From the NCBI GenBank assembly GCA_041653495.1, contig JBAZFF010000003.1, positions 1 through 46,482 of the forward strand: DNA of 46,482 nt, given 5' to 3'. The notes beneath the pieces are model-generated. The model searched no databases, was not told where the DNA came from, and worked only from the letters and a program-made list of their open reading frames with translations. The DNA comes from Minisyncoccota bacterium. GTDB lineage: Bacteria > Patescibacteriota > Minisyncoccia > Minisyncoccales > RBG-13-42-11. How positions within the stretch are numbered: position 1 is the stretch's first letter; each line of letters starts with the position of its first letter. This document shows positions 3,149-40,450 of the stretch, in pieces. Both the position numbers and the translations under genes were made by a program.

Positions 3149-3158
3149 AGGAGGGAAG

Positions 3159-3578: not shown

Positions 3579-3583
3579 CCAGA

Positions 3584-3605
3584 ATTGGTTAAACCAGTGT
3601 ATAAT
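3584..3605 (+). promoter_or_regulatory. promoter-like motif copy 3 (ATTGGTTAAACCAGTG-TATAAT)
   Basis: More diverged copy of the repeated motif, 55 nt upstream of the ATG at 3660. Confidence 0.5.
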
Positions 3606-3659
3606 AGAATATCAGGGATAGGTTCAATTCCACAAACAAAAGGAAGAAAGGAGAACATC

Positions 3660-4202: not shown

Positions 4203-4223
4203 CAATCACTGGACCGGCGCCAA

Positions 4224-4256
4224 GGATCAGAAGAGGTCATTTTGCTCTTCTGATCC
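4224..4256 (+). terminator. 12-bp perfect hairpin (GGATCAGAAGAG/CTCTTCTGATCC), terminator-like
   Basis: Perfect 12-bp stem with a 9-nt loop, 20 nt after the stop at 4202. No clear U-tract follows (TGTGATAGG), so it could be an intrinsic terminator or a processing/stability hairpin. Confidence 0.5.
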
Positions 4257-4277
4257 TGTGATAGGAAGGATTTATAA

Positions 4278-4862: not shown

Positions 4863-5166
4863 GACCAGTTTCGAGGCAAATCATTGCTGGCCAGAATGCC
4901 CTTATCCCGAAGTTTCTTTTCTCAAGTTATCCCATCGCCATAAGTTTTTTGTCGAAATGAAATGGGAGACAACGGAGGACAGGCAAAAGGAATTTCTTAT
5001 GATGAAGAAAAAGGTTGATTCATTCTTGGTGAAAGAATGGAATGGCCAAGATTTGTTTTCTTTATCATGCGAAGTAATGGCGGAGCAGCTGGCATTGTAT
5101 TTTGATGCCAGTTTTGTATCTGTTTTCGAAGACAATGAAAATGGAGCGGAATACCATGCGATATGA
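4840..5166 (+). CDS. QueD/PTPS-like T-fold paralogue (divergent)
   Basis: 'SFEANHCWPEC...LSHRHKFFVEMKWE' mirrors the QueD layout (F-x-A-x-H ... H-x-H followed by a beta strand) but lacks the canonical Cys-x3-HGH. GTG start overlaps the folE end. Assignment is tentative. Confidence 0.45.
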   Translation: MRTYVVIRTSFEANHCWPECPYPEVSFLKLSHRHKFFVEMKWETTEDRQKEFLMMKKKVDSFLVKEWNGQDLFSLSCEVMAEQLALYFDASFVSVFEDNENGAEYHAI

Positions 5167-10537: not shown

Positions 10538-13500
10538 ATGTTTTGTCACCTTCATGTTCATACAGAACATTCTCTGCTGGACGGGTATGGTTCTGCGAAA
10601 AAATATGTGGATAAAGCAAAGCAGTTAGGGTTTGAGTATCTCGGCATCTCTGATCACAGCAATGTAGACGGAGTGATTCAATTCCAAAAGGAATGCAAGA
10701 AGGCCGGTATCAAATCAATTATTGGCTGCGAATTATATTATGTCCCCGATATGGAGATTAAGGAAAAAAGGGAGAAGAGGTATCACCTTACTGTTCTTGT
10801 GAAAAACGAAACAGGGTTTCAGAATCTTTGCAAGATTCTCACCTTGGCAAATTTGAAGGGTTTCTATTACAAGCCAAGGGCAGATTTCAATTCAATTATA
10901 GAGATGAGTAACGGTCTTGTTTTCCTCTCCGGTTGTTCTGCAAGCGCATTGCGGGATCAAAAGGGCGAAGAGTTTTTGATGAATCTCTCAGATAAAACCA
11001 AAGAGGTCTATCTTGAAGTCATGCCCCATGCGATAGAGCCGCAATACGAGGTTAATAATATCTGTCTTGACATTGCCAAAGATACAGGTCTCAAATTGGT
11101 TGCTACCAACGACGCGCACTATATAGAGCAAAGGGACAATGTAATTCAAGAGATTCTGCTCGCAATCCAGACCAAAGCCTTATGGTCTGATCAAAGCAGA
11201 TTTCGTTTTTCAATGGACACCTTGTACCTTAAAACAGAAGGTGAGATGCGTAGGGCTTTCAAGGAGCAAAACTTGTTGTCCACTCCTGAGTATCTCGAAG
11301 CAATCAACAACACAATTGAAGTGGCTGAAAAATGTAGCGGATTTGAAATTAAAAAGAAGGACATTTGGTTGCCAGAAGTGGATACCTCTTCTACGAATGG
11401 AGAAAAACTTAGCGAAGAAGATTACATCAGGTCATTATGTTGCGAAGGTTATTATGATCTATTCGGCAAAGAATTGTCCGGTCATTATCAGCAGCGGTTT
11501 GAAGAAGAACTTAATTTGATTAAATCCAAGAAATTCATCCGGTATTTTTTAGTGGTGCATGAGCTTGTCTGTTGGTGTAAAGAAAACGACATCTTCACAG
11601 GTCCGGGACGAGGATCTGTTGGAGGGTGCCTTATTGCCTATCTTCTCGGTATTACCAAAATAGATCCGATTAAGCATGGTCTGCTTTTTTCTCGGTTCAT
11701 AAATGAAGACAGAATTGATTATCCTGATATTGATATTGATTTCGAGGACACAAAAAGGGACCTTATCCGGCGGCATTTGGAAGATCGGTACGGATCGAAT
11801 AATATTTCGTCTGTTTCCACTTTTCAGAAAATGAAAGGAAGAATGACGATCAAAGATGTCGGCAGGGTTTTTGATATTCCTTATAAGGAGCTTGATGAAT
11901 TTTCCAAGACGATTATTGACGAGGATAACAATGGCGATTCCTCTATTATCACGGCTGCGAAGGGTCACCCGTTTGCAGAAAAATATCCCGAGATAATAGA
12001 TTATGCTTCGAGGCTCGAAGGTACTTTAAGGGGTACGGGACAGCATGCCGCAGCATTGATTGTTTCTGCCGAGGATCTTACCCAAGGGACAAGAGGTAAT
12101 TTGTCCATGAGAAAAGATCATGAAGCGATAAATTGGGATAAGGATGATGCAGAATTTTTAGGCTTGATGAAGCTGGATGTCCTTGCACTCAAGACTTTGT
12201 CTATTTTAAGTGAAGCGAGAAAGCAAGTCCAAAAAGCCAAAGGTGTTGATATCATATATGAAGATTTGCCTTTGAATGACAAGAGGGTTTTTGAAATGCT
12301 TTCGAAGGGAGAGACTGTGGGTATCTTTCAGTTCAATATGTGGGCGACTACAGATATCTGCAAGAAGATGGGAATTGAAGATTTCAATATGATGGTTGCT
12401 GCTCTTGCTCTTGTCCGGCCTGGTGTTTCTGATTCAGGGATGAAAGATGAATTCATCAGGAGAAAAAAAGGCAGGCGGTGGAAGCGGAAACATGATTTGT
12501 ACGAAGAGATTACCAAAGACACTTTCGGTATTATCATCTACCAAGAACAGGTGATGAAGGTCATATATCAAATGGCAGGTCTTCCCTACTCGGTAGCAGA
12601 CAAGATTAGGAAGATTATTTCAAAGAAAAGAGATGTTAAGGAGTTTGAGCAGTATAAGCAAATGTTTTTTGATGGTTGCCGTAAGCAAAAGACTATGTCA
12701 AGGCAAGAGGCCCAAGATTTCTGGGAGATGTTAGAAAAACATGCAAGTTACTCATTTAACGAATCCCACTCTTGTGCTTATTCAGTATTGGCCTATCATT
12801 GTGCTTACATGAAATTGAAATATCCAGCGGAGTTTATTTGCGCCAATTTGATTCATGCAGCCGATACTAAGAAGGAAGAATTGATTGAAGAGGCAAAAAG
12901 GCTGGGTTTGCACCTTGTTCTGCCCCGGGTTGGTGTGTCAGATGCCCATCTGTGGGTTGTCAGGGGTGATAAAATCTATGTTCCTTTTATAGAAATTAAA
13001 GGTGTCGGTGAGAAAACGGCTGAGGACTTTGCTAATTATACCGGGTTGATCGTTCCTGTGAAAAATGATCAGGATGTTGTTGAAAAAGAAGAGCCTTTGG
13101 GAAAGGTTGATAAAAGTAGACCCAAGGGATTCTTCTTTCAAGATGAAGAAAAGGAAAAGATTCCAAAGACAAGATTGGGGAAAATAACGAAAAAACAGAA
13201 GGAAACCAAAGTCGGTAAGATTCTGAGAGAGATTGGGGCTCTTGGTAACGAGCCTGAAGGAGATCTGTCGAAGTATTTCTCTTTTGATGTTTCTGCATTT
13301 GGTGGCATATCAAAGAAATATCCAAAGCTTCAGGAATTTATTGGTCAGACGACGAACGATATCTCTGAAGTGGCCAGACTTGAAATTTCATCTTTTGATG
13401 ATTATAGTGCCGTTATCAAATCTGCCAAGTACAGGAATAGAAGAATCTCCGGCTGTGAAGAATGCGAATTGAGAAAACAAGCGAAGCAGCCAGTTCTCTC

Positions 13501-15019
13501 ATCGTGTGGAAAATATAATATTCCTATTATTGGGGAAGCTCCGGGTTGTATTTCTGGCGATTCTATGATTGAGGTTGCCTTTCGAGATAAAACAAAATTT
13601 CCGAAAGGGATACCAATAAAAGATTTGGAAGGAGAGAAAGATTTTTATGTTTATTCTTTTGATATCCATAAACATATGATGGTTATCGATAAAGTGAAAA
13701 GAGTTTGGCAAACAGGGAGAAAGAAAATTTACGAAGTAACTTATGAATGGTGGATGTTTACGAAAGAAGGTAAAAGAGAGAAAAAAGTTGAAAGATTGAG
13801 AGTGACGGCTAATCATATGTTTTTATTGAAAAAACCAACTTCTGGAAAACATGATCCTTTTAAAGGGATAAATAACGAAAGGGAGATTTATTTATCAATT
13901 GATCAGGGATTAAAGGTTGGGCATAGTTTACAGCCTTTTTATCGTATGAATTTGGATTATGGTTATATAAGGACTGCCGATGAACAATATCGGAAAGAAG
14001 CTCAGGTTTTATTGGAATTTAAATTAAAGCGCAAATTGAAAGTAGATGGTCGTGGTAAAGGAGGAAATTGTCATCATAAAAATGAGAATAAATTAGATGA
14101 TACTTGGGATAATTTAGACTTTTTAACAATATCTAAACACAGATCTCTTCATAGTACGGGGGATAAGAATGCCATGAAAAATCCTGAGATAAAGGCAAGG
14201 CATTTAACTATTATGAGATCAGAAGGATACCGTTCTAATATGAGTAAGATAATGAAGAGAGTGTTAAGGAACCCCCAGACCTATCAGAAGAGATTAGAAG
14301 GGATAAAAAAGTCGAACGATTCCAGATCGGCCACAGTTAAAAGGTTATATGATGATCCCTTACATTATTATAGATATTTATTAGGGAAGATGAATTCTAA
14401 AAGTTTTAATGTCAAAGATACATGGGTAGAAGAAAAGTTTAAAAATAGATTTCCTAATGATTTATTTCCGCCTATTGAAAATCATAAGATTATAGATATC
14501 TGTTATATAGGAGAAGATTCTGTTTATGATATGGAAACAGCAAGGTTCCATAACTTTGCTGTTAATGGAGTTTTTGTTCATAATAGTAGTGAAGATGAGA
14601 AGGCCAAAGGATTCATTGGCAAAGCAGGAGATTTGCTTTGGGATTCTCTGGACAAGTATAAATTGGTTCGAGAGTTTTTTCATGTTTGCAATGCCTGTCG
14701 CTGTTTTCCTGGTACGATCAAGACCCCAAAGCCAGAACATATTGCAGCTTGTTCTCACTGGCTTGATGATGAACTTAAGAATCTCGATGCAAAGATTTGT
14801 CTTGTTCTTGGTAACGTAGCTCTTAGGTACATCAAAGGAGTTGATGGTGGTATCACTTCTCTTTGTGGGACAACAGAATGGTCGGAGGAAAAGAATCTTT
14901 GGGTATGCTATGGATTGCATCCTTCGGCGGTCTTGAGAGATCCAAGTAAGCGAGAAAAATTCAATGAAGGAATTAAGAATTTTTCCGATAAGATAAAATT
15001 ATTGGGAGGCTTGAAATGA
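10538..15019 (+). CDS. dnaE: DNA polymerase III alpha (DnaE) fused to a C-terminal family-4 UDG-like domain, interrupted by an HNH intein
   Basis: PHP domain 'HLHVHTEHSLLDG', palm 'GPGRGSVGGCLIAYLLGITKIDPIKHGLLFSRFINEDRIDYPDIDIDFE' and HhH 'IKGVGEKTAEDF'. The C-terminus has 'CEECELRKQ...IIGEAPG|SSEDEKAKGFIGKAGDLL' and 'GLHPSAVLR', which are UDG family 4 motifs A and B. Confidence 0.9.
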   Translation: MFCHLHVHTEHSLLDGYGSAKKYVDKAKQLGFEYLGISDHSNVDGVIQFQKECKKAGIKSIIGCELYYVPDMEIKEKREKRYHLTVLVKNETGFQNLCKILTLANLKGFYYKPRADFNSIIEMSNGLVFLSGCSASALRDQKGEEFLMNLSDKTKEVYLEVMPHAIEPQYEVNNICLDIAKDTGLKLVATNDAHYIEQRDNVIQEILLAIQTKALWSDQSRFRFSMDTLYLKTEGEMRRAFKEQNLLSTPEYLEAINNTIEVAEKCSGFEIKKKDIWLPEVDTSSTNGEKLSEEDYIRSLCCEGYYDLFGKELSGHYQQRFEEELNLIKSKKFIRYFLVVHELVCWCKENDIFTGPGRGSVGGCLIAYLLGITKIDPIKHGLLFSRFINEDRIDYPDIDIDFEDTKRDLIRRHLEDRYGSNNISSVSTFQKMKGRMTIKDVGRVFDIPYKELDEFSKTIIDEDNNGDSSIITAAKGHPFAEKYPEIIDYASRLEGTLRGTGQHAAALIVSAEDLTQGTRGNLSMRKDHEAINWDKDDAEFLGLMKLDVLALKTLSILSEARKQVQKAKGVDIIYEDLPLNDKRVFEMLSKGETVGIFQFNMWATTDICKKMGIEDFNMMVAALALVRPGVSDSGMKDEFIRRKKGRRWKRKHDLYEEITKDTFGIIIYQEQVMKVIYQMAGLPYSVADKIRKIISKKRDVKEFEQYKQMFFDGCRKQKTMSRQEAQDFWEMLEKHASYSFNESHSCAYSVLAYHCAYMKLKYPAEFICANLIHAADTKKEELIEEAKRLGLHLVLPRVGVSDAHLWVVRGDKIYVPFIEIKGVGEKTAEDFANYTGLIVPVKNDQDVVEKEEPLGKVDKSRPKGFFFQDEEKEKIPKTRLGKITKKQKETKVGKILREIGALGNEPEGDLSKYFSFDVSAFGGISKKYPKLQEFIGQTTNDISEVARLEISSFDDYSAVIKSAKYRNRRISGCEECELRKQAKQPVLSSCGKYNIPIIGEAPGCISGDSMIEVAFRDKTKFPKGIPIKDLEGEKDFYVYSFDIHKHMMVIDKVKRVWQTGRKKIYEVTYEWWMFTKEGKREKKVERLRVTANHMFLLKKPTSGKHDPFKGINNEREIYLSIDQGLKVGHSLQPFYRMNLDYGYIRTADEQYRKEAQVLLEFKLKRKLKVDGRGKGGNCHHKNENKLDDTWDNLDFLTISKHRSLHSTGDKNAMKNPEIKARHLTIMRSEGYRSNMSKIMKRVLRNPQTYQKRLEGIKKSNDSRSATVKRLYDDPLHYYRYLLGKMNSKSFNVKDTWVEEKFKNRFPNDLFPPIENHKIIDICYIGEDSVYDMETARFHNFAVNGVFVHNSSEDEKAKGFIGKAGDLLWDSLDKYKLVREFFHVCNACRCFPGTIKTPKPEHIAACSHWLDDELKNLDAKICLVLGNVALRYIKGVDGGITSLCGTTEWSEEKNLWVCYGLHPSAVLRDPSKREKFNEGIKNFSDKIKLLGGLK
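13547..14584 (+). mobile_element. intein (346 aa) with HNH homing-endonuclease module
   Basis: Starts 'CISGDSMIEV', has 'TANHMF' (block B), 'CHHKNENKLDDTWDNLDFLTISKHRSLH' (HNH) and NUMOD-like repeats. It ends 'VYDMET...VFVHN' followed by Ser+1. It is inserted right after the GEAPG motif, and the segment is visibly more AT-rich than the host gene. Confidence 0.88.
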
Positions 15020-19059: not shown

Positions 19060-19916
19060 TGCCTGATCTAATTATGGATAGTAACTACATCTGCCATTGG
19101 CATCGGTTTGCCTTGTCCCAGGGCCTTTCCTATCGAGGCAAACCCACAGAAATCATTTTTGGTTTTCTCAAAACGGTTTTTGAATTGTCTGAACGGTTTC
19201 AATCAAGACGATTTCTTTTTTGTTGGGATTCAAGAGAGTCTTTGCGGAAGAAAATATATCCAGACTATAAATCCAATCGTCATAAAGAAATGACTGAAGA
19301 AGAAAAAGAAACCAGTTCGGTTGCGTTTCGGCAATTTGACGAAATCCGTCAAATTGTTCTTCCTGATCTTGGATTCAAAAATATTTTTCTTAAAGACGGT
19401 TATGAATCAGATGATTTGATTGCTGTTCTGGTTAAGATGAAATCAACAGACACCAAGGTCGTTGTTTCAAGTGATGCAGATCTTTATCAGCTTTTGCAAT
19501 ATTGCAATATCTATCAACCTGCTAAGAAGCAGCTTATGACCGAAGAATTATTCCAAAAGGAGTATTCTATTGCCTCGAGATATTGGCCCTCGGTTAAATG
19601 TCTTTCAGGATGTTCTACAGATAATGTCGCTGGGATTGTTGGGGTAGGAGAAAAGACTGCGATTAAATATTTCAATGGCGAGCTTGTCAAAGGGAAGGCT
19701 TTTGATTCCATCAAGTCGAAAGAAGGGGTTAAAATTTTCCATAGAAATGCTCTTCTTGTTTCTCTTCCTTTTGATGGAATTGATGTCCTTCCTGTCAAAA
19801 AACAAGAGATCTTTTCCAAAGACAAATTTATTCAGATATTTGAACAATATGGGTTCCAGTCTTTTCTAACAGCTAAGGCTATTTCAAGGTGGACATCTCT
19901 CTTTAATTTGGAGTGA
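19059..19916 (+). CDS. 5'-3' exonuclease / flap endonuclease (Pol I N-terminal, T5 D15-like)
   Basis: 'FCWDSRESLRKKIYPDYKSNR', 'GYESDDLIAVL', 'VVSSDADLYQL' and the H3TH motif 'DNVAGIVGVGEKTAIKY'. Confidence 0.85.
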   Translation: MPDLIMDSNYICHWHRFALSQGLSYRGKPTEIIFGFLKTVFELSERFQSRRFLFCWDSRESLRKKIYPDYKSNRHKEMTEEEKETSSVAFRQFDEIRQIVLPDLGFKNIFLKDGYESDDLIAVLVKMKSTDTKVVVSSDADLYQLLQYCNIYQPAKKQLMTEELFQKEYSIASRYWPSVKCLSGCSTDNVAGIVGVGEKTAIKYFNGELVKGKAFDSIKSKEGVKIFHRNALLVSLPFDGIDVLPVKKQEIFSKDKFIQIFEQYGFQSFLTAKAISRWTSLFNLE

Positions 19917-19918
19917 AA

Positions 19919-20533
19919 ATGGCAAAGATTATTTTTTTTGATTGTGAGACCACAGGAGTAAAAGACGACTGTGGTGTTTGGCAGATCGCAGGAGTTATTG
20001 AAGCTCTCGGCAAACAGGAACAGTTCAATTTCTTTTGCGACATATTTGCAGAGGACGAGATTGACCCTGTTGCTTTTGAGACAAACGGAATGACTGATGC
20101 CAAGCTTTCTACCTTTCCAGATCCTAAGGATGTTCACAAGCAATTCACCAAGTTGCTTGGTAGGTACGTTGACAAATTTGACAAAACGGATAAATTTATT
20201 GCAGTTGCTTATGGTGCCGATTTTGATCAAAGATTTCTTCGGAAGTTCTTTTTCAATTGTGGCGATAAATATTTTGGTTCGTGGTTCTGGCATCCGTGGA
20301 TCTGCATGATGTCCACGTCAGCTCTTTATCTCAGGGAGAGAAGGCATGAACTTGAAAATTTTAAGTTGATCACGGTGGCTAAGCATCTGGGCCTTTGCAG
20401 CGAAGGTGACGCAGATAGATTTCACGATGCTCTTTGGGATGCGAAAATTTGCCAGGCTATGTATCATAGAATGGCAAATGGTTCTAAAGAAGACTTTAGC
20501 AGAATTGGTTTTGATGACGATATTCCTTTTTAG
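19919..20533 (+). CDS. DEDDh 3'-5' exonuclease (DnaQ-like)
   Basis: Exo I 'IIFFDCETTG', Exo II 'AYGADFDQRFL' and Exo III 'HDALWDA'. The ATG at 19919 follows GGAG; the GTG at 19913 is an alternative start. Confidence 0.8.
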   Translation: MAKIIFFDCETTGVKDDCGVWQIAGVIEALGKQEQFNFFCDIFAEDEIDPVAFETNGMTDAKLSTFPDPKDVHKQFTKLLGRYVDKFDKTDKFIAVAYGADFDQRFLRKFFFNCGDKYFGSWFWHPWICMMSTSALYLRERRHELENFKLITVAKHLGLCSEGDADRFHDALWDAKICQAMYHRMANGSKEDFSRIGFDDDIPF

Positions 20534-20546
20534 AAAGGGAAAGCAA

Positions 20547-21182
20547 ATGGGAAAAGGCGGAGGATTTGAATGGGAAGTCGCAAAGAAGCTTTCTCTATGG
20601 TGGAGCGAAGGCAAGCGTGATGATATTTTTTGTCGCTCCCAAGCTTCAGGGGCAAGATTTACCGTGAGAAAGAAAGTGGGGAAAGATACTGCAAATCAGT
20701 CTGGTGATATCACGTTTTCCGACGCTATTGGAGAACCTCTTATTAAGCTTTGGTCGATAGAATGCAAAACAGGGTATGGCAAGAAAAAGAAAATTCGAGA
20801 CGAAGATAATAAGATTGTTGCCAAGGAAGACGTTCGTTGGGATTTGCTCGATTTTCTTGATTCTTCTCAGAAAGTCACGGTGCTTTCCTCGATGTGGGAA
20901 CAATGCAAACGTGATGCGAAAAAATCAAGGAAGATTCCTATTCTTGTTTTCCGACGGAACAGGAGAAAAAAATGCGTAATGTTGGATGATAGGGTTTACC
21001 AAAGTTTGTGTGGCTACGTTGGCCCTTCTGAATGCAAAACGATATTTTTAAATATTCCTTCCGTGCTCCAGGATGGTTTTTTCAAAATCATGCTTTTTGA
21101 CGATTTTCTTTTTTGGCTTCGGTTTTTACCGAACGCTTTGATTCCTCGGGAAAAAGGAGGGCGGGAGCGGAAATCGAAATGA
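20547..21182 (+). CDS. PD-(D/E)xK nuclease, Holliday-junction-resolvase-like (Hjc-type)
   Basis: 'GGGFEWEVAKKL' resembles the Hjc G..FE..V...L signature. '...SGDITFSD...LWSIECKTG' fits a D...E-x-K core. The ATG at 20547 follows AAAGGGAAAG; the longer 20406 start overlaps the exonuclease gene. Confidence 0.55.
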   Translation: MGKGGGFEWEVAKKLSLWWSEGKRDDIFCRSQASGARFTVRKKVGKDTANQSGDITFSDAIGEPLIKLWSIECKTGYGKKKKIRDEDNKIVAKEDVRWDLLDFLDSSQKVTVLSSMWEQCKRDAKKSRKIPILVFRRNRRKKCVMLDDRVYQSLCGYVGPSECKTIFLNIPSVLQDGFFKIMLFDDFLFWLRFLPNALIPREKGGRERKSK

Positions 21183-22417
21183 TTAAGTCTCTTAGGGTCA
21201 AGAATTTCAAATCACATAAAGATACCACTCTTGTTTTTGACAAAGGCGTCAATGTCATTCAAGGACTAAGCACGACCGGGAAGAGTGCAATACTCAATGC
21301 CTTGCGGTTGTTGTTCAACAACAGGCCTCAGGGCGGGCATTACTTTTCAAATTTTGCCGGGGATAAAGGCGCGACCGAGATTGAACTTGAATTGATGGAC
21401 GGTCAAAAGGTTTCTCTCACAAAAGGAATCAGGGTTGATAAGGACGGCGAAAAGAAGGTCATTGGTGGCGTCTACACCATTGGCGAGAATGAGTTTACTT
21501 GCCCTAAAGAAGGAATCCCTGACCAAGTTGCAGAAGCCCTCAACATCGGCGAATTGAACATCCAGCGGCAACATTCGGCGCCTTTTCTTATAATGTCGTC
21601 TCCCGGCGAAAACGCCAGGATGGTGAATAGAATCACCAAGCTGGAAAAGACAGACGAATGGGTTTCTGATCTCGCCAGCAAGATCAACGAAGGGAATAGG
21701 ACTATTCTTTCTACCCAAGAAGAGATTAAGCAGGCGGAGATCAATCTTAAAAAATATTCTGATATTGACGAAACAAAGAAAATTGTCGATGCTCTTGTTG
21801 CCGTTGACAGAGAAATACCCCATCTTGAAGAGGATAGGGATTTTCTATCCAACCAATTAGGCCGGCACAAATCTTATTCAGAAGGGGTAGAAGAATTGAA
21901 GGCTTGCTTGGCCGTGGAAAGTGTTCTTTCTCTGGCCGACAAGTTATCTCAAGAGATTGAAGATTATTATGCTCTCGTAGATCTATTCAATCGTTATGTA
22001 GATGACGAAGAAAAAAAGGAAGTGTTGTTCGAAGACATCGCGATCATTGAATCTCTTCTTTTGAAGATTGATCAGTGCGATTATTCGAAGGAGCAAAGAA
22101 AGCGGGACAGCCTCGTATCGTATCAACAGACGTATTTCTCGGCTCAGGGAAGGCTCAGGGTCCTGGCAACGGCTCTTGAGGAGCAAGTCAGGGTTAAAGC
22201 GATAGAAGATTTACGCGAGGAAATCATCGATTATGAGGATTTGATGTCTTTTGTCGAAGGATACAGACAGAACCTTGAGCAGCTGGCAGGAATTGGGGTC
22301 AGGCTGTCCGGAGCCAAAGAAGAATATGTGTCTGAACTGAAAAGGATAGGGAAGTGCCCTACTTGCTATTCCAGCATTGATGCCGCTTTGGCGAAGAGGA
22401 TTAAGGGCCAGTTATGA
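21179..22417 (+). CDS. sbcC: SbcC/Rad50 N-terminal half (Walker A lobe, coiled coil, zinc hook)
   Basis: 'LRVKNFKSHKDTTLVFDKGVNVIQGLSTTGKSAILNAL' is the Rad50/SbcC N-lobe with Walker A. About 250 aa of heptad-rich sequence follow, and the protein ends in 'GKCPTCYSS' (CxxC hook) 18 aa before the stop. Confidence 0.75.
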   Translation: MIKSLRVKNFKSHKDTTLVFDKGVNVIQGLSTTGKSAILNALRLLFNNRPQGGHYFSNFAGDKGATEIELELMDGQKVSLTKGIRVDKDGEKKVIGGVYTIGENEFTCPKEGIPDQVAEALNIGELNIQRQHSAPFLIMSSPGENARMVNRITKLEKTDEWVSDLASKINEGNRTILSTQEEIKQAEINLKKYSDIDETKKIVDALVAVDREIPHLEEDRDFLSNQLGRHKSYSEGVEELKACLAVESVLSLADKLSQEIEDYYALVDLFNRYVDDEEKKEVLFEDIAIIESLLLKIDQCDYSKEQRKRDSLVSYQQTYFSAQGRLRVLATALEEQVRVKAIEDLREEIIDYEDLMSFVEGYRQNLEQLAGIGVRLSGAKEEYVSELKRIGKCPTCYSSIDAALAKRIKGQL

Positions 22418-23340
22418 AATTCATTCTTGTTTCTGATGTTCATTTGTTGCGGCAAAATCCTGTTGCGAGGAAAGACAATCTCGTAGAAAATCAATTCAAG
22501 AAGTTTGAATTCATCTTGCAGCAGGCAAGGATTCAAAAGGCCGACATTTTATGCGCGGCCGATTTCTGCGATATTCCTCGAAGCTGGGTTCTTTTGCCGA
22601 GGATCATTTCGCTTCTAAAGGATTATGAAGATGTAAGGTTGCACACCGTGTTTGGCCAGCATGATACATATCTCTACAGCGAAGAGACAAGGGACAGGAC
22701 AACCCTTGGCGTTCTTGAAAAGGCAGGCCTGGTGACGGTTCTTGATTCCTCCCCTTTGCAAATCACAGGAGAGGACCGTTGCGTGACCTTATACGGTTGT
22801 TCCTTTGGGGCGGATGTTCCGGTTCCTGTTGTTTCTTCGAGATCGACGATGTTTAATGTTCTGGTTATCCATGCTTCAATTTCAGACCGGTCTTTGTACC
22901 CTGGCCAAGAGCCGACAATGGCGAAGAAATTCCTTGAGAGCAACAAGAATTTCGACCTGATTGTTTGTGGGGACATTCATCGGAGTTTTATGGTTAAGGC
23001 CGGCAAGAGATTTCTTTTCGATGTTGGTCCTATGTTGCGGAGAGAAGCAACCCAATATAATTTTTCTCATGTTCCCCATGTTGTTTTTTTTGATACAGAG
23101 AAATTAACCTACGAAGAAATTGAAATACCTCATAAGCCTGCCGATGAAGTTCTTGATCGGTCTCATATTGACCGGGTTGTGGAGAGCAAAGATATCCTTG
23201 AAGGGTTTGTTTCTGAAATTGAATCGGAAGACACCGAGAAGGTTTCTTTTGAGGAAATTTTGTGGTCGTTGGTCAAGGCGAATAAAGGGAGCAAGTCGGT
23301 CGAAAAGGTTTTGTCGGAAACAATGGAGGAAAGATCATGA
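22414..23340 (+). CDS. sbcD: SbcD/Mre11-family nuclease (calcineurin-like phosphoesterase)
   Basis: Motif I 'ILVSDVHL', motif II 'LCAADFCD', 'GQHD', 'LVIHAS' and 'VCGDIH'. It sits between the two SbcC halves. Confidence 0.8.
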   Translation: MKFILVSDVHLLRQNPVARKDNLVENQFKKFEFILQQARIQKADILCAADFCDIPRSWVLLPRIISLLKDYEDVRLHTVFGQHDTYLYSEETRDRTTLGVLEKAGLVTVLDSSPLQITGEDRCVTLYGCSFGADVPVPVVSSRSTMFNVLVIHASISDRSLYPGQEPTMAKKFLESNKNFDLIVCGDIHRSFMVKAGKRFLFDVGPMLRREATQYNFSHVPHVVFFDTEKLTYEEIEIPHKPADEVLDRSHIDRVVESKDILEGFVSEIESEDTEKVSFEEILWSLVKANKGSKSVEKVLSETMEERS

Positions 23341-23579
23341 ATGAGGAGAAAGTTCTCAAGGCATTAAAAGATAAACTTGAAGCAATCAAAACAGAGTACG
23401 CCCAGAAAGAAGGGGCAATGGCTTCTACTCTTGAATTGATCAAAAAGGAATTTGGGATTCAGACCATCGAAGAAGCTGAAGATAAGCTGAAAGAACTTGA
23501 ATCCCAGATCGAGGAAAAGAAAAAGCAACGAACCAAGTATCTCGAACAGGCGCAAAAGAAGTTGGAGGCTTATCAGTGA
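23337..23579 (+). CDS. 80-aa all-coiled-coil protein
   Basis: 'KLEAIKTEYAQKEGAM...KLKELESQIEEKKKQRTKYLEQAQKKLEAY' is heptad-like and charged. Overlapping start/stop codons couple it to both neighbours. Confidence 0.55.
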   Translation: MNEEKVLKALKDKLEAIKTEYAQKEGAMASTLELIKKEFGIQTIEEAEDKLKELESQIEEKKKQRTKYLEQAQKKLEAYQ

Positions 23580-24283
23580 TGACTGTTCAAGAAATAGCTG
23601 ATCAATTTGCAGAAGTCTCGGCGAATCAAAAGATATTGCGCCAGCAGCTTGAAGTGAAGAGCAACCAGGTTTCAGAAATGAAGCAAGTTGTGGAAGATCA
23701 AATTCAGGCGAGGTTCTTTATTTCAGAAGCCGCCAGACTTACCCAAAGCCGGTTCAAGGAAAAAATAGAATCTCTCGTCACGATGGCCGTCCAGTCCGTT
23801 TTCGATCGCCCCTTTAAATTTCAGCTGGTCTTTGAGCGCAAACGGAATAAGATGGAGTGCCTTCCTATTATAACCGAAATGATCAATGGCAAGGAAAGCG
23901 TTTACAGCGATATGGAAGAGGATGTCGGTGGAGGCCTTATTGATATTGTTGCTTTCGCTTCAAGGATTGTTTTGTGGTCTTTGGAGAAACCAAGAAGCAG
24001 GAACACGATTATTCTTGATGAGCCGATGAAAAATATGGGGGAATTGATTTCCCTTGGCGGACAGATTCTTCGCGAAATTAGTCACAAGCTGAATTTTCAA
24101 ATAATTTTGGTTACCCATGAGGATCCTCTTATCGAGGTCTCTGACAGGGCCTATCGAGTTACTCACGATGGCGTCATGTCCAATGTTGAACTTGTCAAAG
24201 GAGCGCAAGTCAATGTCGAAGAAAAAACTGAATCGAAGGGAATCCCTGTCCGTAAGCTTAACCGACGTCAGGGAGGAAATTAA
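23576..24283 (+). CDS. sbcC: SbcC/Rad50 C-terminal half (coiled coil, signature motif, Walker B, H-loop)
   Basis: N-terminal coiled coil, then 'DVGGGLIDIVAFASRI' (a degenerate LSGG signature), 'TIILDEPMKNMG' (Walker B/D-loop) and 'IILVTHED' (H-loop). Confidence 0.7.
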   Translation: MMTVQEIADQFAEVSANQKILRQQLEVKSNQVSEMKQVVEDQIQARFFISEAARLTQSRFKEKIESLVTMAVQSVFDRPFKFQLVFERKRNKMECLPIITEMINGKESVYSDMEEDVGGGLIDIVAFASRIVLWSLEKPRSRNTIILDEPMKNMGELISLGGQILREISHKLNFQIILVTHEDPLIEVSDRAYRVTHDGVMSNVELVKGAQVNVEEKTESKGIPVRKLNRRQGGN

Positions 24284-24687: not shown

Positions 24688-25104
24688 ATGGGTAAATTAA
24701 ACCGTAGAGAGAATTTTGTGCCACCGGAAATAGACGAAGAACAGGCAATTGATTCGTCAAGCTCAGTCATTACTAATCTTATCTTTCCGACGAGGGCAGG
24801 GGAAAAGGAAGGAAGGGTGAATTGGTGCAAGAATCTTGCAGGGGGATATCTTTTTTGCGGAGTAACCTATATCAAAGATAAAGGTTGTTCAGAGTGGATT
24901 TTGGAAACTTCAGGCGGAAAATTCGTTCCTGTCCTTGAATGGGGGAGGTGGACAGAAGCAGAGATAGTGGATATTATTGATTTAATAAAAGGGAAAAGAG
25001 GCCCATTTAAGTTGCAAGAAAAAACACCAGATTTGATTAAAGCGGTGTATAATAACAATAGAGAGAAGGAAAGAGTCGGGTTCTTTTTCAAGAGGCGCAA
25101 GTAA
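24688..25104 (+). CDS. hypothetical protein
   Basis: Clean 138-aa ORF with no motif. Its 3' end contains promoter motif copy 5. Confidence 0.5.
   Translation: MGKLNRRENFVPPEIDEEQAIDSSSSVITNLIFPTRAGEKEGRVNWCKNLAGGYLFCGVTYIKDKGCSEWILETSGGKFVPVLEWGRWTEAEIVDIIDLIKGKRGPFKLQEKTPDLIKAVYNNNREKERVGFFFKRRK
25032..25053 (+). promoter_or_regulatory. promoter-like motif copy 5 (TTTGATTAAAGCGGTG-TATAAT)
   Basis: Lies inside the last 25 codons of CDS 24688..25104 and points into the gene-poor 25105..26055 interval. Confidence 0.55.
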
Positions 25105-25174
25105 AAAAGTAGATTAAGAAGCTTGCGGAAATTTAAAATTGCCCTTTGGCGCCAAATTGAAAGGAGGCGATTGT

Positions 25175-25222
25175 ATGAAACCGATTCACGGCGTGTCCGA
25201 ATTTGACTACTTTGTGATGTAA
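25175..25222 (+). CDS. 15-codon mini-ORF (MKPIHGVSEFDYFVM) with perfect RBS
   Basis: AAAGGAGG lies 7 nt upstream of the ATG. The ORF sits between promoter copy 5 and the terminator at 25265..25300, so it may be a leader peptide or micropeptide. Too short to validate from sequence. Confidence 0.25.
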   Translation: MKPIHGVSEFDYFVM

Positions 25223-25264
25223 CACTTGCCGGCGACCGGCCATCAAACAAGAAACATTGTTTGA

Positions 25265-25300
25265 GTCCCCGAATCAGTAATCGGGGTTCGGGGACTTTTT
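25265..25300 (+). terminator. rho-independent terminator
   Basis: GTCCCCGAA (25265-73) pairs perfectly with TTCGGGGAC (25287-95) and is followed by TTTTT (25296-300). Confidence 0.7.
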
Positions 25301-26045
25301 AGAGTGATTCTTTAAAATGCTGGTGTGGCGGAAGAGTATAGACGCTAATCAGAAGGAGGAGAACTTGCCCGGTGTAGCGATACGATGCGGGCAAGACCGC
25401 CCAGATGAGTATGGTAAGGCGGCGGGCAAGACGTAAAACGAGGCGTCATCACAACACGCCTATCCCCTTCACTCCAGGTATCAAATCCTGGCACCAGCAC
25501 CAAACAAAGGTAACGATGTATTATCCATCTCAAGCAATAATAGAAGCAGCGGCAAAAGAGGCCTACGGAACCTGCAATTACTTTTCCGCAGGGAACATAG
25601 AGGATGATAATCCGCTGAGCGCGGACGATAACTGGCCCTGGGTAAGGTACCCAACAGGGTTTGTTTAGCTTCAGTGTTGGCAGACCACGCAAAAACTGCC
25701 AGCCGCTGAATATGTGAAAGAGCGGTTAGAATATGAATCCAGTATACTAACCGCTCCATTGACAAGTTCAGTATCAGAAACAAGAAACTCCGCCATTGAT
25801 AACGGGCGAGGCAGCTTCATCCAACCTGTCTAATTGACAACGTACTTGGCGGCGTCTTTGAATTATCGGGGAATAGCTCAGATGGAAGCGAGTAGGCCGA
25901 GACAATTTCGAGGAACTGAAAGCGAAGAGCGACCGCAATAAAGCGGTGGGCCGAAGCATAGGGTAGCGGATAGACACTGATTTGTACCCGGTGGAACGAC
26001 CGTGAAATCCCGTCACCAAACTTCTTTCCCGGCCAAAAAAAATAA
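25301..26045 (+). ncRNA. candidate large structured non-coding RNA(s); class unknown
   Basis: About 745 nt with no RBS-preceded ORF of 60 aa or more, and higher GC than the flanks. It is packed with perfect helices, for example GAGCGGTTAG/CTAACCGCTC 25720-29/25747-56 and CTTGCCCG/CGGGCAAG 25364-71/25388-95. Strand is inferred from context only. A 50-aa ORF at 25516..25668 is an alternative explanation for part of it. Confidence 0.35.
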
Positions 26046-26055
26046 AAGGAGACAA

Positions 26056-26256
26056 ATGAGAAAAATTACCAGCCAGAGAAAGAAATTCAGAGAAGAAAAA
26101 GGCGCGCCGTTGTCTATTACTTGTCCTGAGTGCGATCATACCGATGTCGAAGAAGGATCCATAGCTTTCAATTCCAAGATTATGGATTCTCATATCTGTT
26201 CTCATTGTCTAACCGAATTCAAGCTTTCGGAAAGAAAGGAGAGAAAAGGGATATGA
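26056..26256 (+). CDS. small zinc-ribbon protein
   Basis: ATG follows AAAAGGAGA. CPEC...CSHC pairs are present. 66 aa. Confidence 0.5.
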   Translation: MRKITSQRKKFREEKGAPLSITCPECDHTDVEEGSIAFNSKIMDSHICSHCLTEFKLSERKERKGI

Positions 26257-29239: not shown

Positions 29240-30394
29240 ATGAAGAAAGTAATTGTTACCGAAAGAATCCCTATAAAAATGTGGCTGGGTGATATTGAAC
29301 AAGGAGCATTAAACCAAGGTTTGAATCTTGCCAATCTACCTTTTGCCTTCAAGCACATTGCCATCATGCCGGATGCCCATCAGGGCTATGGAATGCCCAT
29401 TGGAGGTGTTCTGGCGACTCGCAGGGCGGTTATCCCAAACGCCGTGGGCGTTGACATTGGCTGTGGTATGTGCGCGGTAAGGACTGACTTAACAGACATC
29501 AGCCAGGAAACACTCAAGAAAATAATGGAGAGAATCCGCGAAGCTGTCCCGGTCGGTTTTAAACACCATGCAGAACCACAAGAAAACGACTTTTACCTTC
29601 CCGGTCAGTTCGGCCCGATTATCGCCCAGGAAGAAGGGAACATTGACTACCAGATAGGAACTCTTGGTGGTGGAAACCATTTCATTGAAATTCAGAAAGG
29701 TTCTGATGGGAATTTTTGGATTATGATTCATTCCGGAAGCCGCAACCTTGGCAAGAAGGTGGCTGATTTCTACAACAAGATAGCTGTTAAGCTGAACGAA
29801 CAGTGGCATTCTTCAGTTCCTAAGCAATGGGAGCTTGCCTTTCTGCCGATGGATACGCCGGAATACAAGGGATACCTTCAGGATATGCAGATATGTGTGG
29901 ACTTTGCCCTTGCAAACCGGAAACTCATGATGGACAGAATAACGGCGATATTTTATACTGAAACACTTTGCGATTTCGAGTCGATGATTAATATTGCTCA
30001 CAACTATGCAAAGATGGAAAATCATTTTGGAGAGAATGTGCTCGTACACAGGAAGGGTGCTACATCAGCAAAGGTCGGGCAGATAGGAATCATACCAGGA
30101 TCACAGGGGACAAAGAGCTACGTCGTAGAAGGCATGGGAAATCCAGAAAGTTTTCAAAGCTGTTCGCATGGAGCCGGAAGGTGCATGGGAAGAAAAGATG
30201 CCACCAGAAGGCTTGATCTTAAGACAGAAATCAAGAGACTTGACGATCAGGGCATTATTCATGGCATCAGAAATATAGACGATCTCGACGAGGCGGCGGG
30301 GGCATATAAGGATATTGCCGTTGTCATGGAAAATCAGAAGGATCTCGTTAAGATTCTTGTTGAACTTAAACCGGTGGCTGTTATTAAAGGATAA
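29240..30394 (+). CDS. rtcB: RtcB RNA ligase (3'-phosphate/5'-hydroxyl)
   Basis: 'MPDAHQGYGMPIGGV', 'VGVDIGCGM', 'GGGNHFIEIQ', 'HSGSRNLG', 'HRKGAT', 'IPGSQGTKSY' and 'SCSHGAGR' form the complete set of RtcB metal- and GMP-His motifs. Confidence 0.92.
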   Translation: MKKVIVTERIPIKMWLGDIEQGALNQGLNLANLPFAFKHIAIMPDAHQGYGMPIGGVLATRRAVIPNAVGVDIGCGMCAVRTDLTDISQETLKKIMERIREAVPVGFKHHAEPQENDFYLPGQFGPIIAQEEGNIDYQIGTLGGGNHFIEIQKGSDGNFWIMIHSGSRNLGKKVADFYNKIAVKLNEQWHSSVPKQWELAFLPMDTPEYKGYLQDMQICVDFALANRKLMMDRITAIFYTETLCDFESMINIAHNYAKMENHFGENVLVHRKGATSAKVGQIGIIPGSQGTKSYVVEGMGNPESFQSCSHGAGRCMGRKDATRRLDLKTEIKRLDDQGIIHGIRNIDDLDEAAGAYKDIAVVMENQKDLVKILVELKPVAVIKG

Positions 30395-33164: not shown

Positions 33165-33241
33165 CGGGGTGTGGCGGAGTCTGGTACCGCACTGGCTTTG
33201 GGAGCCGGCTATCGCAGGTTCAAATCCCACCATCCCGACCA
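33165..33241 (+). tRNA. tRNA-Pro (anticodon UGG)-like, CCA encoded
   Basis: Manual cloverleaf: acceptor CGGGGTG/CATCCCG (7 bp, one G-U), D-stem GCGG/CCGC with loop AGTCTGGTA, anticodon stem CTGGC/GCCGG, and loop TT-TGG-GA. T-loop is TTCAAAT, discriminator A, then CCA. The T-stem GCAGG/CCCAC has two A-C/C-A mismatches. Confidence 0.6.
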
Positions 33242-33261: not shown

Positions 33262-33450
33262 ATGAGCAATGAAATTTGTCCGACTTGCGGAAGATCATTA
33301 AACAACAATGTTCCAAAGAGAATATGTTTTCTTTGCGGAAAGCAAATAACAAGACATCATAAATGGCAGATAGTAGACAGTAAAATTCAACATCGTTGTT
33401 GTGATAATCCAGGTAATTACCCAAAAGGAGAAATGAAATGCGACTTGTAA
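33262..33450 (+). CDS. small zinc-ribbon protein
   Basis: CPTC...CFLC pairs. The ATG at 33262 follows the tRNA; the longer ORF-track start at 33154 runs through the tRNA. Confidence 0.45.
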   Translation: MSNEICPTCGRSLNNNVPKRICFLCGKQITRHHKWQIVDSKIQHRCCDNPGNYPKGEMKCDL

Positions 33451-34328
33451 AAGCAAGTTATCAGATTATGGCGATGTCGGGCTTCCCGGAGCTTCCTTAC
33501 AGCTATGCAGATTCGGACAGGCTCATTGAAGCGGCAGGCAGAACTTGTTACAAATCCGAAGACAAGATTACGGAAACATCTGCAAAGCCTTTTGTCGAAA
33601 TGCTTGAGAAGCGAACGCACTTCGCCATGATTGAACATTCATGGGAAGTGCGGTTATATTTTGGGGCTGAATTGCCAAAATATCCTTCTCCGTTCTTGAG
33701 ATCATTTTCTTTTTACGGCGATTCTATCGTCGTTGGAAATAGAACGGCTTTTACCGAGGTTGAGCAGAGAGAAGACTTGCCCAAAGGGAATTATTGGCTT
33801 TGGTCCGAATCGGCAATTCGTGCTTTTTCGGAACATTACAGCCATCATTTGATTTTGGCCATGACAGTGAAATTCATCACGGATCGTGGTGTTTCTCACG
33901 AACTTGTCCGGCATCGTCCTTGCTCCTTCGCCCAGGAAAGTACCCGATATTGTAATTATAAGGACGGTGTTGCTTTCATCATTCCTCCATGGTTGGATTT
34001 GCCTGAAGGTGAATTCAATAATCAGGATTTGATTGAGTTCAAGGCGCAAAGGCATCTTAACGATATTGAACGGCGATGGCTTGCAAATCGTTTTCGAGAC
34101 GAAGAGAATTATGTCGATATGTTGAAATTCGGCTGGAAGTCAGAGCAAGCAAGAGGCGAGCTTCCAACCTGCTTAAAAACAGAGATATGGGTAACTGCAC
34201 CTGTCTCTCAATGGCGCTATATGTTCTATCGCAGAGACGACAAAGCGGTCCATGAGCAGATGCGAGAATTGATGAATCCTCTTCATGAGGAAGTCAAAGA
34301 GAAGTATCCTGTTTACTTTGGAGGATAG
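33438..34328 (+). CDS. thyX: FAD-dependent thymidylate synthase ThyX
   Basis: 'ELVRHRPCSFAQESTRYC' is the ThyX signature RHRxxSxxxxSxRY. 296 aa. Confidence 0.9.
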   Translation: MRLVKASYQIMAMSGFPELPYSYADSDRLIEAAGRTCYKSEDKITETSAKPFVEMLEKRTHFAMIEHSWEVRLYFGAELPKYPSPFLRSFSFYGDSIVVGNRTAFTEVEQREDLPKGNYWLWSESAIRAFSEHYSHHLILAMTVKFITDRGVSHELVRHRPCSFAQESTRYCNYKDGVAFIIPPWLDLPEGEFNNQDLIEFKAQRHLNDIERRWLANRFRDEENYVDMLKFGWKSEQARGELPTCLKTEIWVTAPVSQWRYMFYRRDDKAVHEQMRELMNPLHEEVKEKYPVYFGG

Positions 34329-40026: not shown

Positions 40027-40051
40027 TCGACTTATTGAAAGGATAGAAGCA

Positions 40052-40450
40052 ATGGGCGTAGGCATGCCAGCAGCTTTATGGCTTGATGAGTTTGGATCAC
40101 AAGTGTGGAACGCATTTGGCCAGCCCTGTTATCTGGTGGGGTCGGCGTTAACACATAAAACTTATCGTGATGTTGACGTCCGACTTCTCCTTGATGACGG
40201 AGAATGGGAAAAGCAAGGATTTGGAGATCCGAGAAGAATTCATAGTAATGGTAAGTGGGTTTCTCTTTGTCTTGCTTATTCGGCGTTGGGAAAGCAGATG
40301 ACTGGCCTGAATATTGATTTTCAGATTCAGAAGGCGAGCGACGCTAATAAAGTCTATGCCGATACAAAATTATTTCCGAGATCATGCTTGGGAATGGTTT
40401 CTTTGAGAATGCCAAGGTGTTGTCATAGCAATGCAGGCGAGGAGGAATAG
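40052..40450 (+). CDS. minimal nucleotidyltransferase (Pol beta superfamily)
   Basis: 'CYLVGSALTHKTYRDVDVRLLL' matches the G-S-x9-D-x-D NTase signature. 132 aa from the ATG at 40052. Confidence 0.6.
   Translation: MGVGMPAALWLDEFGSQVWNAFGQPCYLVGSALTHKTYRDVDVRLLLDDGEWEKQGFGDPRRIHSNGKWVSLCLAYSALGKQMTGLNIDFQIQKASDANKVYADTKLFPRSCLGMVSLRMPRCCHSNAGEEE

Follow-up and report, generated by a model that had tools for sequence, protein, structure and literature searches.

A phage tRNA-like RNA with a hypervariable arm: a putative natural scaffold for exchangeable RNA modules in a gene-poor interval

What is encoded in the longest stretch of a phage genome that lacks a credible protein gene? This question is raised by positions 25105–26055 of the window, by which we mean the whole stretch of 46,482 nucleotides (nt) of phage DNA that was analysed; all coordinates are positions in this window, and L-numbers such as L099 designate fetched viral or metagenomic contig loci. 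The interval is flanked by a 138-amino acid (aa) orphan gene (g138a; 24688–25104) and a 66-aa Zn-ribbon gene (26056–26256), in a genome that is coded on the + strand only. The original prediction had described it as gene-poor, GC-enriched and dense in hairpins, and had interpreted it as one structured RNA of ~745 nt resembling GOLLD or ROOL, or else as a cluster of small RNAs (sRNAs). The description holds in that no longer stretch without a credible protein gene exists in the window, the GC content is 0.49–0.50 as compared to ~0.42 for most of the window, and all listed motifs and helices are present, shifted by 1–2 nt at most. The interpretation has to be replaced: the interval is a composite of a unit A (25033–25301), a tRNA-like RNA B (25319–25502, + strand) and ~550 nt of orphan sequence C. 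The tRNA-like RNA is the one validated element of the interval. With a probability of roughly 0.6, it represents a stand-alone gene for a tRNA-derived stable RNA, whose tRNA body would serve as scaffold for exchangeable modules.

The element comprises 184 nt and resembles a cloverleaf, in which the anticodon arm is replaced by a module at 25351–25473. A 7-bp acceptor stem (GCUGGUG/CACCAGC, 25319–25/25492–98) adjoins the T arm CCAGG-UAUCAAAU-CCUGG (25474–91), which has a 5-bp stem and an 8-nt loop. The D arm UGGCGGAAGAGUAUAGACGCUA at 25326–47 is of tRNA-Leu type, U8, A14, A15 and U48 are invariant, and the discriminator A (25499) is followed by an encoded CCA (25500–02). When 25315–25506 was folded without constraints, a four-helix cloverleaf was obtained (z = -4.9; equalled in stability by 0/200 shuffles), and its minimum free energy (MFE) structure lies near the centroid. 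Covariance model R1, which was built from the 26 other members of the family described below and excludes the window, scored 25319–25499 at 70.2 bits (E ~3e-16) over model positions 1–134/134, while ordinary tRNAs reached 13–35 bits with the same model. At its 5' side the element is preceded by the leader UCUUUAAAAU (25309–25318), which has a U at position -1 and is A-rich at -2 to -4; similar leaders, (G)AUCUUURAAAU, occur in ~9 family members. The shape, U(-1), the A-rich leader and ACCA are features of RNase P substrates, from which we infer cleavage by this enzyme.

Homologues of the element were obtained by pattern scans. The first scan addressed metagenomes, was anchored on the T arm and NCCA only and yielded 15 loci. 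Five of these also share a 20-nt 5' block, UGGCGGAAGAGUnnAGACGC, which lies outside the search pattern, and their acceptor strands differ yet are complementary. A scan of viral contigs using this D block detected 22 more loci. Thus delimited, the family has at least 27 members, i.e. the element of the window, which carries both the conserved D block and the T loop UAYCRAAU, and 26 others in viral and metagenomic contigs. Members consist of a 7-nt acceptor strand, the 22-nt D block, an arm of 36–166 nt, the T arm (5+8+5 nt) and a 7-nt complementary acceptor strand, and 18 distinct acceptor sequences are found among the 27. In the alignment of the family halves (A1), 96% of the cells are paired, as compared to 36–45% when the partners were slid against each other. 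Double changes occur in all seven acceptor pairs and in three of the five T-stem pairs; the number of double-change cells is 77 versus 20.8 in shuffles, and the observed score was not reached in any of 500 shuffles. This test is unbiased, because the acceptor stem took no part in member selection. Covariation among homologues, which the original prediction had named as a check for the interval at large, is found at 25319–25502; the blastn and nhmmer searches retrieved homologues for these 184 nt only and none for the rest of the interval.

The full alignment (A3) further supports the relationship with tRNA. U8, A14 and A15 as well as a U directly before the T stem are invariant; these residues make up the U8-A14 and A15-U48 tertiary pairs known from tRNA. 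Of the 27 members, 18 have A as discriminator and 10 encode ACCA; 16 carry U at -1 of the leader, and A prevails at -2, -3 and -4 (16–17/27 each). Base for base, the D block matches E. coli leuV tRNA-Leu at positions 8–15 (UGGCGGAA) and in AGACGC (20a–25). Merely the centre of the D loop deviates, reading GAGUAn instead of UUGGU; it is one base longer and thereby mirrors the T loop, which is also extended by one base. Accordingly, the element agrees with class II tRNA-Leu in the 7-bp acceptor stacked on the 5-bp T stem, in U8/A14 and the A15-U48-type Levitt pair and in the CCA end. It differs by the lack of G18G19 in the longer D-loop centre, by the 8-nt T loop and by the lack of an anticodon arm and hence of decoding.

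Could the RNA nonetheless decode as a true tRNA, whose large intron or expanded anticodon arm is spliced via the phage-encoded RtcB, or else be a small tmRNA? The intact tRNA body, the CCA encoded in part of the family and the presence of the tRNA-splicing ligase RtcB at 29240–30394 are compatible with the former, and a larger domain takes the place of the anticodon arm also in tmRNA (SsrA), which shares the tRNA-like domain with free acceptor ends and CCA. Moreover, ARAGORN accepted 21/27 bodies as tRNA once a standard anticodon arm had been spliced in. However, none of the 27 native elements was recognised by this program, neither with or without introns nor in tmRNA mode, and relaxed thresholds produced six calls with inconsistent isotypes. 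The Rfam tRNA and tmRNA models touch none of the 27 members, and the tRNA model does not match the element of the window within 221 nt even at E ≤ 10. At the junction there is no anticodon-type hairpin (5-bp stem and 7-nt loop with U33, positions 27–43), so that removal of the arm leaves no anticodon stem behind; 5-bp/7-nt hairpins located anywhere in the arm occur in 5/27 members versus 1.7 expected, at inconsistent positions. As far as tmRNA is concerned, the alanine identity pair G3:U70 is absent, pair 3:70 being GC, UA, CG or AU in the 27 members and never GU, a conserved tag ORF (open reading frame) and a pseudoknot series are lacking, the D stem is complete, and the inserts shrink to 36 nt. 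We consider a decoding tRNA or a tmRNA very unlikely.

Further tRNA-like elements were encountered in the fetched loci. A syntenic relative carries a 106-nt cousin of the family (L051:12621–12726; 26.8 bits with model R1), which combines an 8-bp acceptor stem (GCUGGCAG/CUGCCAGC), a tRNA-Leu-type start GUGGCGGAAUUGGCA and a canonical T arm (GCAGG-UUCGAAU-CCUGC) with a centre that is not tRNA-like. In L077 (~4085–4190), the family member is directly followed by another element, whose D and T loops are canonical and whose arm is long and A/U-rich. In L065 (2796–2940), ~80 nt are inserted ahead of the T arm of a tRNA-like gene. L094, whose arm measures 166 nt, carries within this arm a canonical T-arm-like hairpin (GACAG-UUCGAGU-CUGUC). 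A truncated member is present at L080:858–885 on the minus strand, where leader, acceptor strand and D block are kept and the 3' half is replaced by an ORF for a small membrane protein. Genuine tRNAs in arrays of L060, L061 and L068 (tRNA-Met CAU, tRNA-Gln UUG) share the T arm GCAGG-UAUCAAAU-CCUGC with its 8-nt loop; this variant is therefore tolerated in decoding tRNAs of such phages or their hosts.

The family is not catalogued in Rfam 15, which annotates 0/27 members, and no description of it was found in the literature searched. Fremin et al. 2023 (PMC10690425) report unnamed tRNA-like candidates in IMG/VR. In GenBank phages and PLSDB plasmids, neither the interval nor the tRNA body nor the module had a match.

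Which part of the RNA varies? The arm is hypervariable (36–166 nt), and comparison of several loci shows that it is swapped like a cassette, precisely at the borders of the conserved body. L059 and L091 are ~99% identical over the 147 nt that end with the D arm, and identical again for ~50 nt starting 3 nt before the T stem, while the arms in between (77 versus 90 nt) cannot be aligned. Conversely, L058 and L091 share a 100% identical arm within different flanks. The element of the window, L079 and L087 have the same acceptor and unrelated arms of 126, 50 and 36 nt, respectively. Taken together, the arms show more structure than shuffled sequences (mean z = -1.33, p = 1.4e-5), with the arm of the window being extreme (z = -4.3).

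The surroundings of the element bear on the question of whether the tRNA shape itself is the function, i.e. whether the RNA marks a site of RNase P/RNase Z processing between cistrons ('tRNA punctuation') or is a leader that acts in cis on stability or translation of the flanking mRNAs, with the arm as neutral filler. The element is closely packed between early, replication or recombination genes of the same orientation, the upstream gene ending 2–40 nt before it in many members, and a ribosome-binding site (RBS) with start codon follows ~9–25 nt after the 3' end in 11/27, including a 50-aa ORF in the window. The composition of the leader at -1 to -4 fits such a role as well, and so does the location of the module in the 5' untranslated region of RtcB in L104 (see below). 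In L075, which likewise carries the RNA family, the element is located 20 nt 5' of a FolE homologue. However, a neutral arm would not be structured beyond chance, and filler would not keep compensatory changes across three contexts, as observed for the module described below. The downstream genes are mutually unrelated across the family, which argues against a gene-specific cis-regulator, and ordinary phage tRNAs could serve equally well for punctuation. This explanation therefore appears rather unlikely to us. Two further candidates for the role of the element were dismissed. No protein family recurs beside it among the neighbour genes of the family, which leaves no dedicated partner protein, and an antisense guide against own transcripts is not supported, given the lack of excess complementarity between the arms and their own loci.

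The arm of the window, in turn, proved to be an RNA domain of its own. The module (25351–25473, ~120 nt) is composed of four helices, P0–P3, and holds most of the helices that had been listed between 25364 and 25460. P0 closes the module (~25351–60 with 25463–73), and 7/10 of its pairs show compensatory changes. P1 (CUUGCCCG/CGGGCAAG, 25364–71/25388–95) displays an invariant 16-nt loop, GUGUAGCGAUACGNNG; the pair noted from the DNA as CTTGCCCG/CGGGCAAG is thereby confirmed, and a second copy of CGGGCAAG exists at 25423–30, which could pair alternatively. P2 (CCGCC/GGCGG, 25397–401/25418–22) covaries, encloses the invariant 17-nt loop CAGAUGRGUAUGGUAAG and is followed by the conserved linker GUAAAACG. 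P3 (AGGCGU/ACGCCU, 25441–46/25456–61) contains the previously noted GGCGT/ACGCC pairing at 25442–46/25456–60. A scan with the main hairpin detected two homologues of ~88% identity over 111 nt, both on the minus strand (L099:5869–5993 and L104:5097–5221). In the alignment of the three copies, 93.7% of the cells are paired versus 36–48% after sliding, and nine pairs have double changes as compared to 3.3 in shuffles (0/500).

The three copies reside in different contexts. In L099, the module occupies the anticodon-arm position of a different cloverleaf, which is made up of the acceptor GCGCGGU/ACCGCGC, one hairpin that is D-like and another that is T-like but has a non-tRNA loop. In L104, it lacks a tRNA body altogether, is located between UvsY-like and gp32-like genes and ends 25 nt before the start codon of RtcB, i.e. 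within its 5' untranslated region. L104 derives from a related phage: its RtcB is 60% identical to that of the window and its clamp loader 43%, and RecA, exonuclease and Pol III are shared. The module is thus an independently conserved, covarying RNA domain that is present with two different scaffolds and with none. A perfect Shine-Dalgarno-like sequence that had escaped the original prediction, GAAGGAGG at 25352–59, forms the 5' strand of P0; the corresponding sequence is UAUAGGGG in L099 and AAUGGAG in L104, and a 23-codon TTG ORF of the window is frame-shifted in L099. Neither is therefore conserved, and GAAGGAGG is best read as a strand of the covarying helix rather than as a conserved RBS.

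Two observations on the DNA around the module are added here. In L099, the module belongs to a cluster of non-coding RNAs: a tRNA follows at once and a DUF3800-III RNA (75.8 bits) ~450 nt further on (5758–5830 and 5193–5305, both minus strand), and the repeat GTGATAGCG precedes both the cloverleaf and the tRNA. The Logan assembly of the same phage as in the window (SRR18595300) breaks inside the module, with contig ends at 25399 and 25434. An 11-nt direct repeat, GCGGGCAAGAC (25387, 25422), is found on either side of the resulting 34-nt gap, and a simple 35-nt deletion model does not match the ends exactly. The break could reflect heterogeneity of the population, e.g. by repeat slippage, or a drop in coverage at the GC-rich hairpin.

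The position 25 nt 5' of RtcB in L104 and the presence of RtcB in the phage of the window make an activity in RNA repair or ligation the leading guess for the module. Specifically, the module may be a functional RNA working with the phage RtcB, for instance as a self-cleaving or ligatable RNA, as a sensor or as a cofactor against host tRNA cleavage, with the tRNA body as a recombination-ready display scaffold, which would amount to an RNA counterpart of a cassette system; we regard this extended model as possible, though less likely than not.

A related explanation is a tRNA mimic, which would act as decoy or cofactor in a tRNA conflict by sponging host toxins or defences at acceptor ends or elbows, or would be a Y-RNA-like partner of RtcB. 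Known non-coding RNAs that mimic tRNA include tmRNA, YrlA and viral tRNA-like structures, and YrlA-type RNAs adjoin rtcB in the rsr-yrlBA-rtcBA locus of Salmonella. In the present family, conservation extends to the acceptor-CCA end and the elbow, whereas an anticodon can be dispensed with, and the phage encodes tRNA-Pro besides RtcB, the gene directly preceded by the module in L104. YrlA is encoded next to Ro60, and the M. smegmatis RNA is cleaved by RNase P and acquires CCA (Chen et al. 2014, PMC4201824). The element shares with YrlA the RNA-repair neighbourhood and, by its predicted processing, the RNase P cut and CCA. It differs in that the YrlA termini lie in the Ro60-binding stem and its 'acceptor' is closed by a loop (PMC4201824), whereas the termini of the element form the acceptor. 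Moreover, no Ro60/TROVE gene was found among the window ORFs scanned, and neither a GNCGAA motif nor a match to Rfam Y-RNA is present. The other close RtcB relatives, which have no module in the DNA fetched (see below), likewise speak against a fixed partner of RtcB, and a pure decoy would leave swapping and conservation of the arm unexplained. A mimic of this kind is accordingly unlikely in our view.

To return to the stand-alone scaffold RNA, several points weigh against it. A terminator-like hairpin lies 18 nt 5' of the element with no visible promoter in between, and transcription of the element would therefore need read-through. D block and T loop were used to find and delimit the members, so their invariance is partly built in. 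All members stem from uncultivated contigs and are known as sequences only, the module exists in three copies in all, and processing by RNase P and at the CCA end is inferred from shape and leader composition alone. The arms have no excess complementarity to their own loci, which leaves an antisense role against phage transcripts unsupported. Finally, the connection to RtcB involves two genomes, and five contigs from four other close RtcB relatives (65–73% identity) have no module in the DNA fetched (L108–L111 with RtcB flanks of up to 5 kb either way; L112, 1.4 kb, with 83 nt upstream). A general linkage to RtcB was therefore rejected, and the link is a lead rather than a rule.

According to the scaffold model, the RNA would be co-transcribed with early or replication genes. 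RNase P would cut at the 5' end, where the leader provides U at -1 and is A-rich, and the 3' end would be trimmed to the encoded CCA, or CCA would be added. Folding into the L-shape would confer nuclease resistance, as in engineered 'tRNA scaffold' chimeras. The RNA would not decode; rather, the tRNA body would contribute processing and stability, while the arm would provide a lineage-specific activity acting in trans. The conserved body segments of 22–29 nt would serve as homology arms, through which phage recombination could swap modules.

How does such an RNA compare with known ones? By analogy, its nearest functional counterpart would be the engineered 'tRNA scaffold' of Ponchon and Dardel (2007), in which the anticodon arm is reportedly replaced by an arbitrary structured RNA that is processed and stabilised like a tRNA in bacteria. 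The architecture is the same; the scaffold is man-made, whereas the element would be natural, evolving and cassette-exchanging. The nearest natural analogues are tmRNA and YrlA, and the features missing from the element set it apart from both classes. Phage T4 encodes the stable RNAs C and D in its tRNA cluster, which are tRNA-like, processed and non-decoding. They resemble the element in being phage-encoded and tRNA-like, and are not known to have exchangeable arms.

Is the interval structured beyond this element? In a scan of the whole window, 14/618 overlapping 150-nt windows had z < -3, and three of these 14 fall inside the interval, which makes up ~2% of the window. Structure of the interval is thus beyond chance, though local and not uniform: two zones, 25150–25500 and 25650–25825, exceed shuffled controls in folding energy, whereas 25450–25650 and 25750–26050 fold like shuffles. 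One ornate RNA of ~750 nt of the GOLLD/ROOL type across 25300–26055 could still be defended by the raised GC content and by the fold of the 753 nt at 25303–26055, which has z = -3.6 on the + strand versus -0.7 on the minus strand. GOLLD and ROOL are, like the element, phage-associated and near tRNAs. However, the centroid drops most long-range pairs of the MFE fold, the proposed long-range pair 25547–53/25702–08 obtained no support, and homology is confined to precisely the 184-nt element, which is unrelated in architecture to the 400–800-nt GOLLD and ROOL RNAs. At gathering score, Rfam 15 matched tRNA-Pro alone in the whole window. Relaxed scans of 24950–26150, 25300–25520 and 25640–26060 had a best E of 1.9 and gave no match to GOLLD (RF01998), ROOL (RF03087), group I/II introns, riboswitches, tRNA, tmRNA or Y-RNA. 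The ornate-RNA reading of 25300–26055 is therefore largely refuted, and we attach next to no credence to it. The fallback of an sRNA cluster fared better to the extent that one comparatively validated RNA exists, the remainder being orphan.

Syntenic relatives point in the same direction. A block of SbcC-N, SbcD, g80 and ATPase genes is common to nine IMG/VR contigs (L048–L056), six of which also have g138a. In these contigs, genes are tightly packed and no equivalent gap is found 3' of the g138a homologue, or of the ATPase gene where g138a is missing; the interval is therefore lineage-specific. Consistently, the search of 5.8 billion protein clusters left the ORFs of the interval, including the 87/50-aa ORF, and the upstream 138-aa gene as singletons, and the interval ORFs match neither Pfam nor PHROGs. 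Searches via a 242-aa downstream gene returned 45 loci lacking synteny and nucleotide similarity, and the SbcD-like gene (22414–23340) found no relatives in viral contigs. Three other origins of the interval were discarded. A degenerate tRNA cluster is contradicted by relaxed ARAGORN, which produces an equal density of junk calls in coding sequence; a tRNA-like fragment at 25869 has neither support nor relatives. A remnant of a neighbour gene does not apply, as the ~190-aa gene found after g138a in syntenic relatives corresponds to 19913–20533 and not to the interval. For a mobile element, convincing terminal inverted repeats or target duplications were not found.

Unit A precedes the tRNA-like RNA on the + strand. 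It starts with the promoter motif TTGATTAAAGCGGTGTATAATA (25033–25054; -35 TTGATT, extended -10 TGTATAAT), which is located inside the 3' end of the gene 24688–25104. The window holds this motif five times, always on the + strand, as compared to zero expected from 100 shuffles, and the other four copies are each positioned 20–45 nt 5' of a gene. Transcription is predicted to start at ~25061. The leader contains a 12-nt perfect palindrome, TTTGGCGCCAAA (25145–25156), which could be an operator or a small hairpin. An RBS, AAAGGAGG (25160–67), is followed by the 15-codon ORF MKPIHGVSEFDYFVM (25175–25222), whose codon score of 0.27/codon is in the coding range, with too few codons to judge; nucleotide and translated searches of the fetched loci detected no homologue. 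The unit ends with an intrinsic-terminator-like hairpin at 25264–25301, in which a 10-bp perfect GC-rich stem (AGTCCCCGAA/TTCGGGGACT, 25264–73/25287–96) with a 13-nt loop directly precedes UUUUU. A simple terminator scan missed this hairpin since its loop exceeds 8 nt, and termination is predicted. The resulting transcript of ~240 nt (25061–25301) folds with z = -3.0, containing two small hairpins besides the terminator, and unit A may be a micro-protein gene or a ~240-nt sRNA. Thus, promoter, mini-ORF and terminator are real as a sequence unit, but no sign of the proposed gating of a downstream RNA and no homologues were found.

On the 3' side of the tRNA-like RNA, the 50-aa ORF (MYYPSQAII..., 25516–25668, + strand) starts 13 nt after CCA, with a weak RBS (AAAGGU, 25505–10). 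Its codon score is 0.18/codon versus 0.14–0.22 for neighbouring real genes, the 95th percentile of off-frame scores being -0.09, and a gene finder called it on the contig (P0001). It has no homologue in the 5.8 billion clusters and no Pfam match; a Cna-B match, the sole hit of exhaustive HMMER, was rejected as spurious, partial and repeat-inflated. An orphan small protein gene is plausible. The reading frame stays open to 25941 save for stops at 25666 and 25831, with marginal codon scores (-0.04, -0.07), and this continuation may be a decayed gene. Three hairpins follow on the + strand at 25636–59, 25678–701 (the TGGCAG/CTGCCA pairing at 25678–83/25696–701 is present as listed) and 25720–56, the last one being the strongest in the interval with 14-nt arms of 93% complementarity. 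Windows of 150 nt have z = -4.0 to -5.8 here, and 25630–25830 as a whole z = -3.7. The hairpins are not terminators, because no U-tract follows. A pattern scan of viral contigs yielded 0 hits for 25636–25756, and blastn and nhmmer were negative. Positions 25757–26055 contain no supported feature and end in the RBS of the Zn-ribbon gene. A match of the DUF2815 RNA (RF03084) at 25960–26058 was discarded, as it scores 16.9 bits versus a gathering threshold of 41.2 (E = 1.9–5.3), has a 40-nt insertion and contains mispairs.

Beyond the interval, the phage carries genes for DnaB, a QueE/FolE/DpdA-like 7-deazaguanine set, a Pol III-type replisome, RecA, exonucleases and a split SbcC with SbcD. 3' of the interval, genes for a weakly HD-like protein, RtcB, tRNA-Pro (33165–33241), thymidylate synthase, terminase and portal follow. 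The split SbcC locus (21113–24283) consists of the N-terminal ATPase half (21113–22417), SbcD, an 80-aa gene and the C-terminal ATPase half (23576–24283); this order is conserved in the nine IMG/VR relatives and in L086, and in L109 RtcB is found between the SbcD side and the C-terminal half. The DNA-modification set at 2399–9296 is complete with QueE-like, FolE and DpdA/TGT-like proteins, and a weak glycosyltransferase match is present at 7321–8337. A 1493-aa Pol III alpha-like protein (10538–15019) includes an HNH-endonuclease-like segment at residues ~1175–1218, possibly an intein or a homing endonuclease that has inserted there, and a 740-aa ORF (5102–7324) also has an HNH domain. Further structural hot spots on the + strand are located at 33520–33760 and 40040–40290 (150-nt z to -5.2 and -4.8; folds of 240–250 nt, z = -2.95 and -3.26, respectively). 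Both are inside ORFs, the former within the N-terminal 140 residues of ORF 33438–34328, outside of the thymidylate-synthase homology. Among the RtcB relatives, L110 (ENA ERZ26661859 NODE_98) has a Ro60-vWA fragment, a methyltransferase, two tRNA-like calls and a Thg1-like gene in its neighbourhood, which looks like an RNA-repair cluster, and in L111 and L112 tRNA-Pro(UGG) directly follows RtcB.

With respect to phage biology, the family is a class of elements that is missed in phage genomes by tRNA finders and Rfam alike. If the scaffold model is true, these RNAs would be a natural counterpart of the engineered tRNA scaffold for recombinant RNA, and their arms would provide a ready list of ~20 phage RNA modules that were worth displaying to evolution. 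For one of these modules, there would be a testable link to the RNA-repair ligase RtcB in the conflict between phage and host over tRNA.

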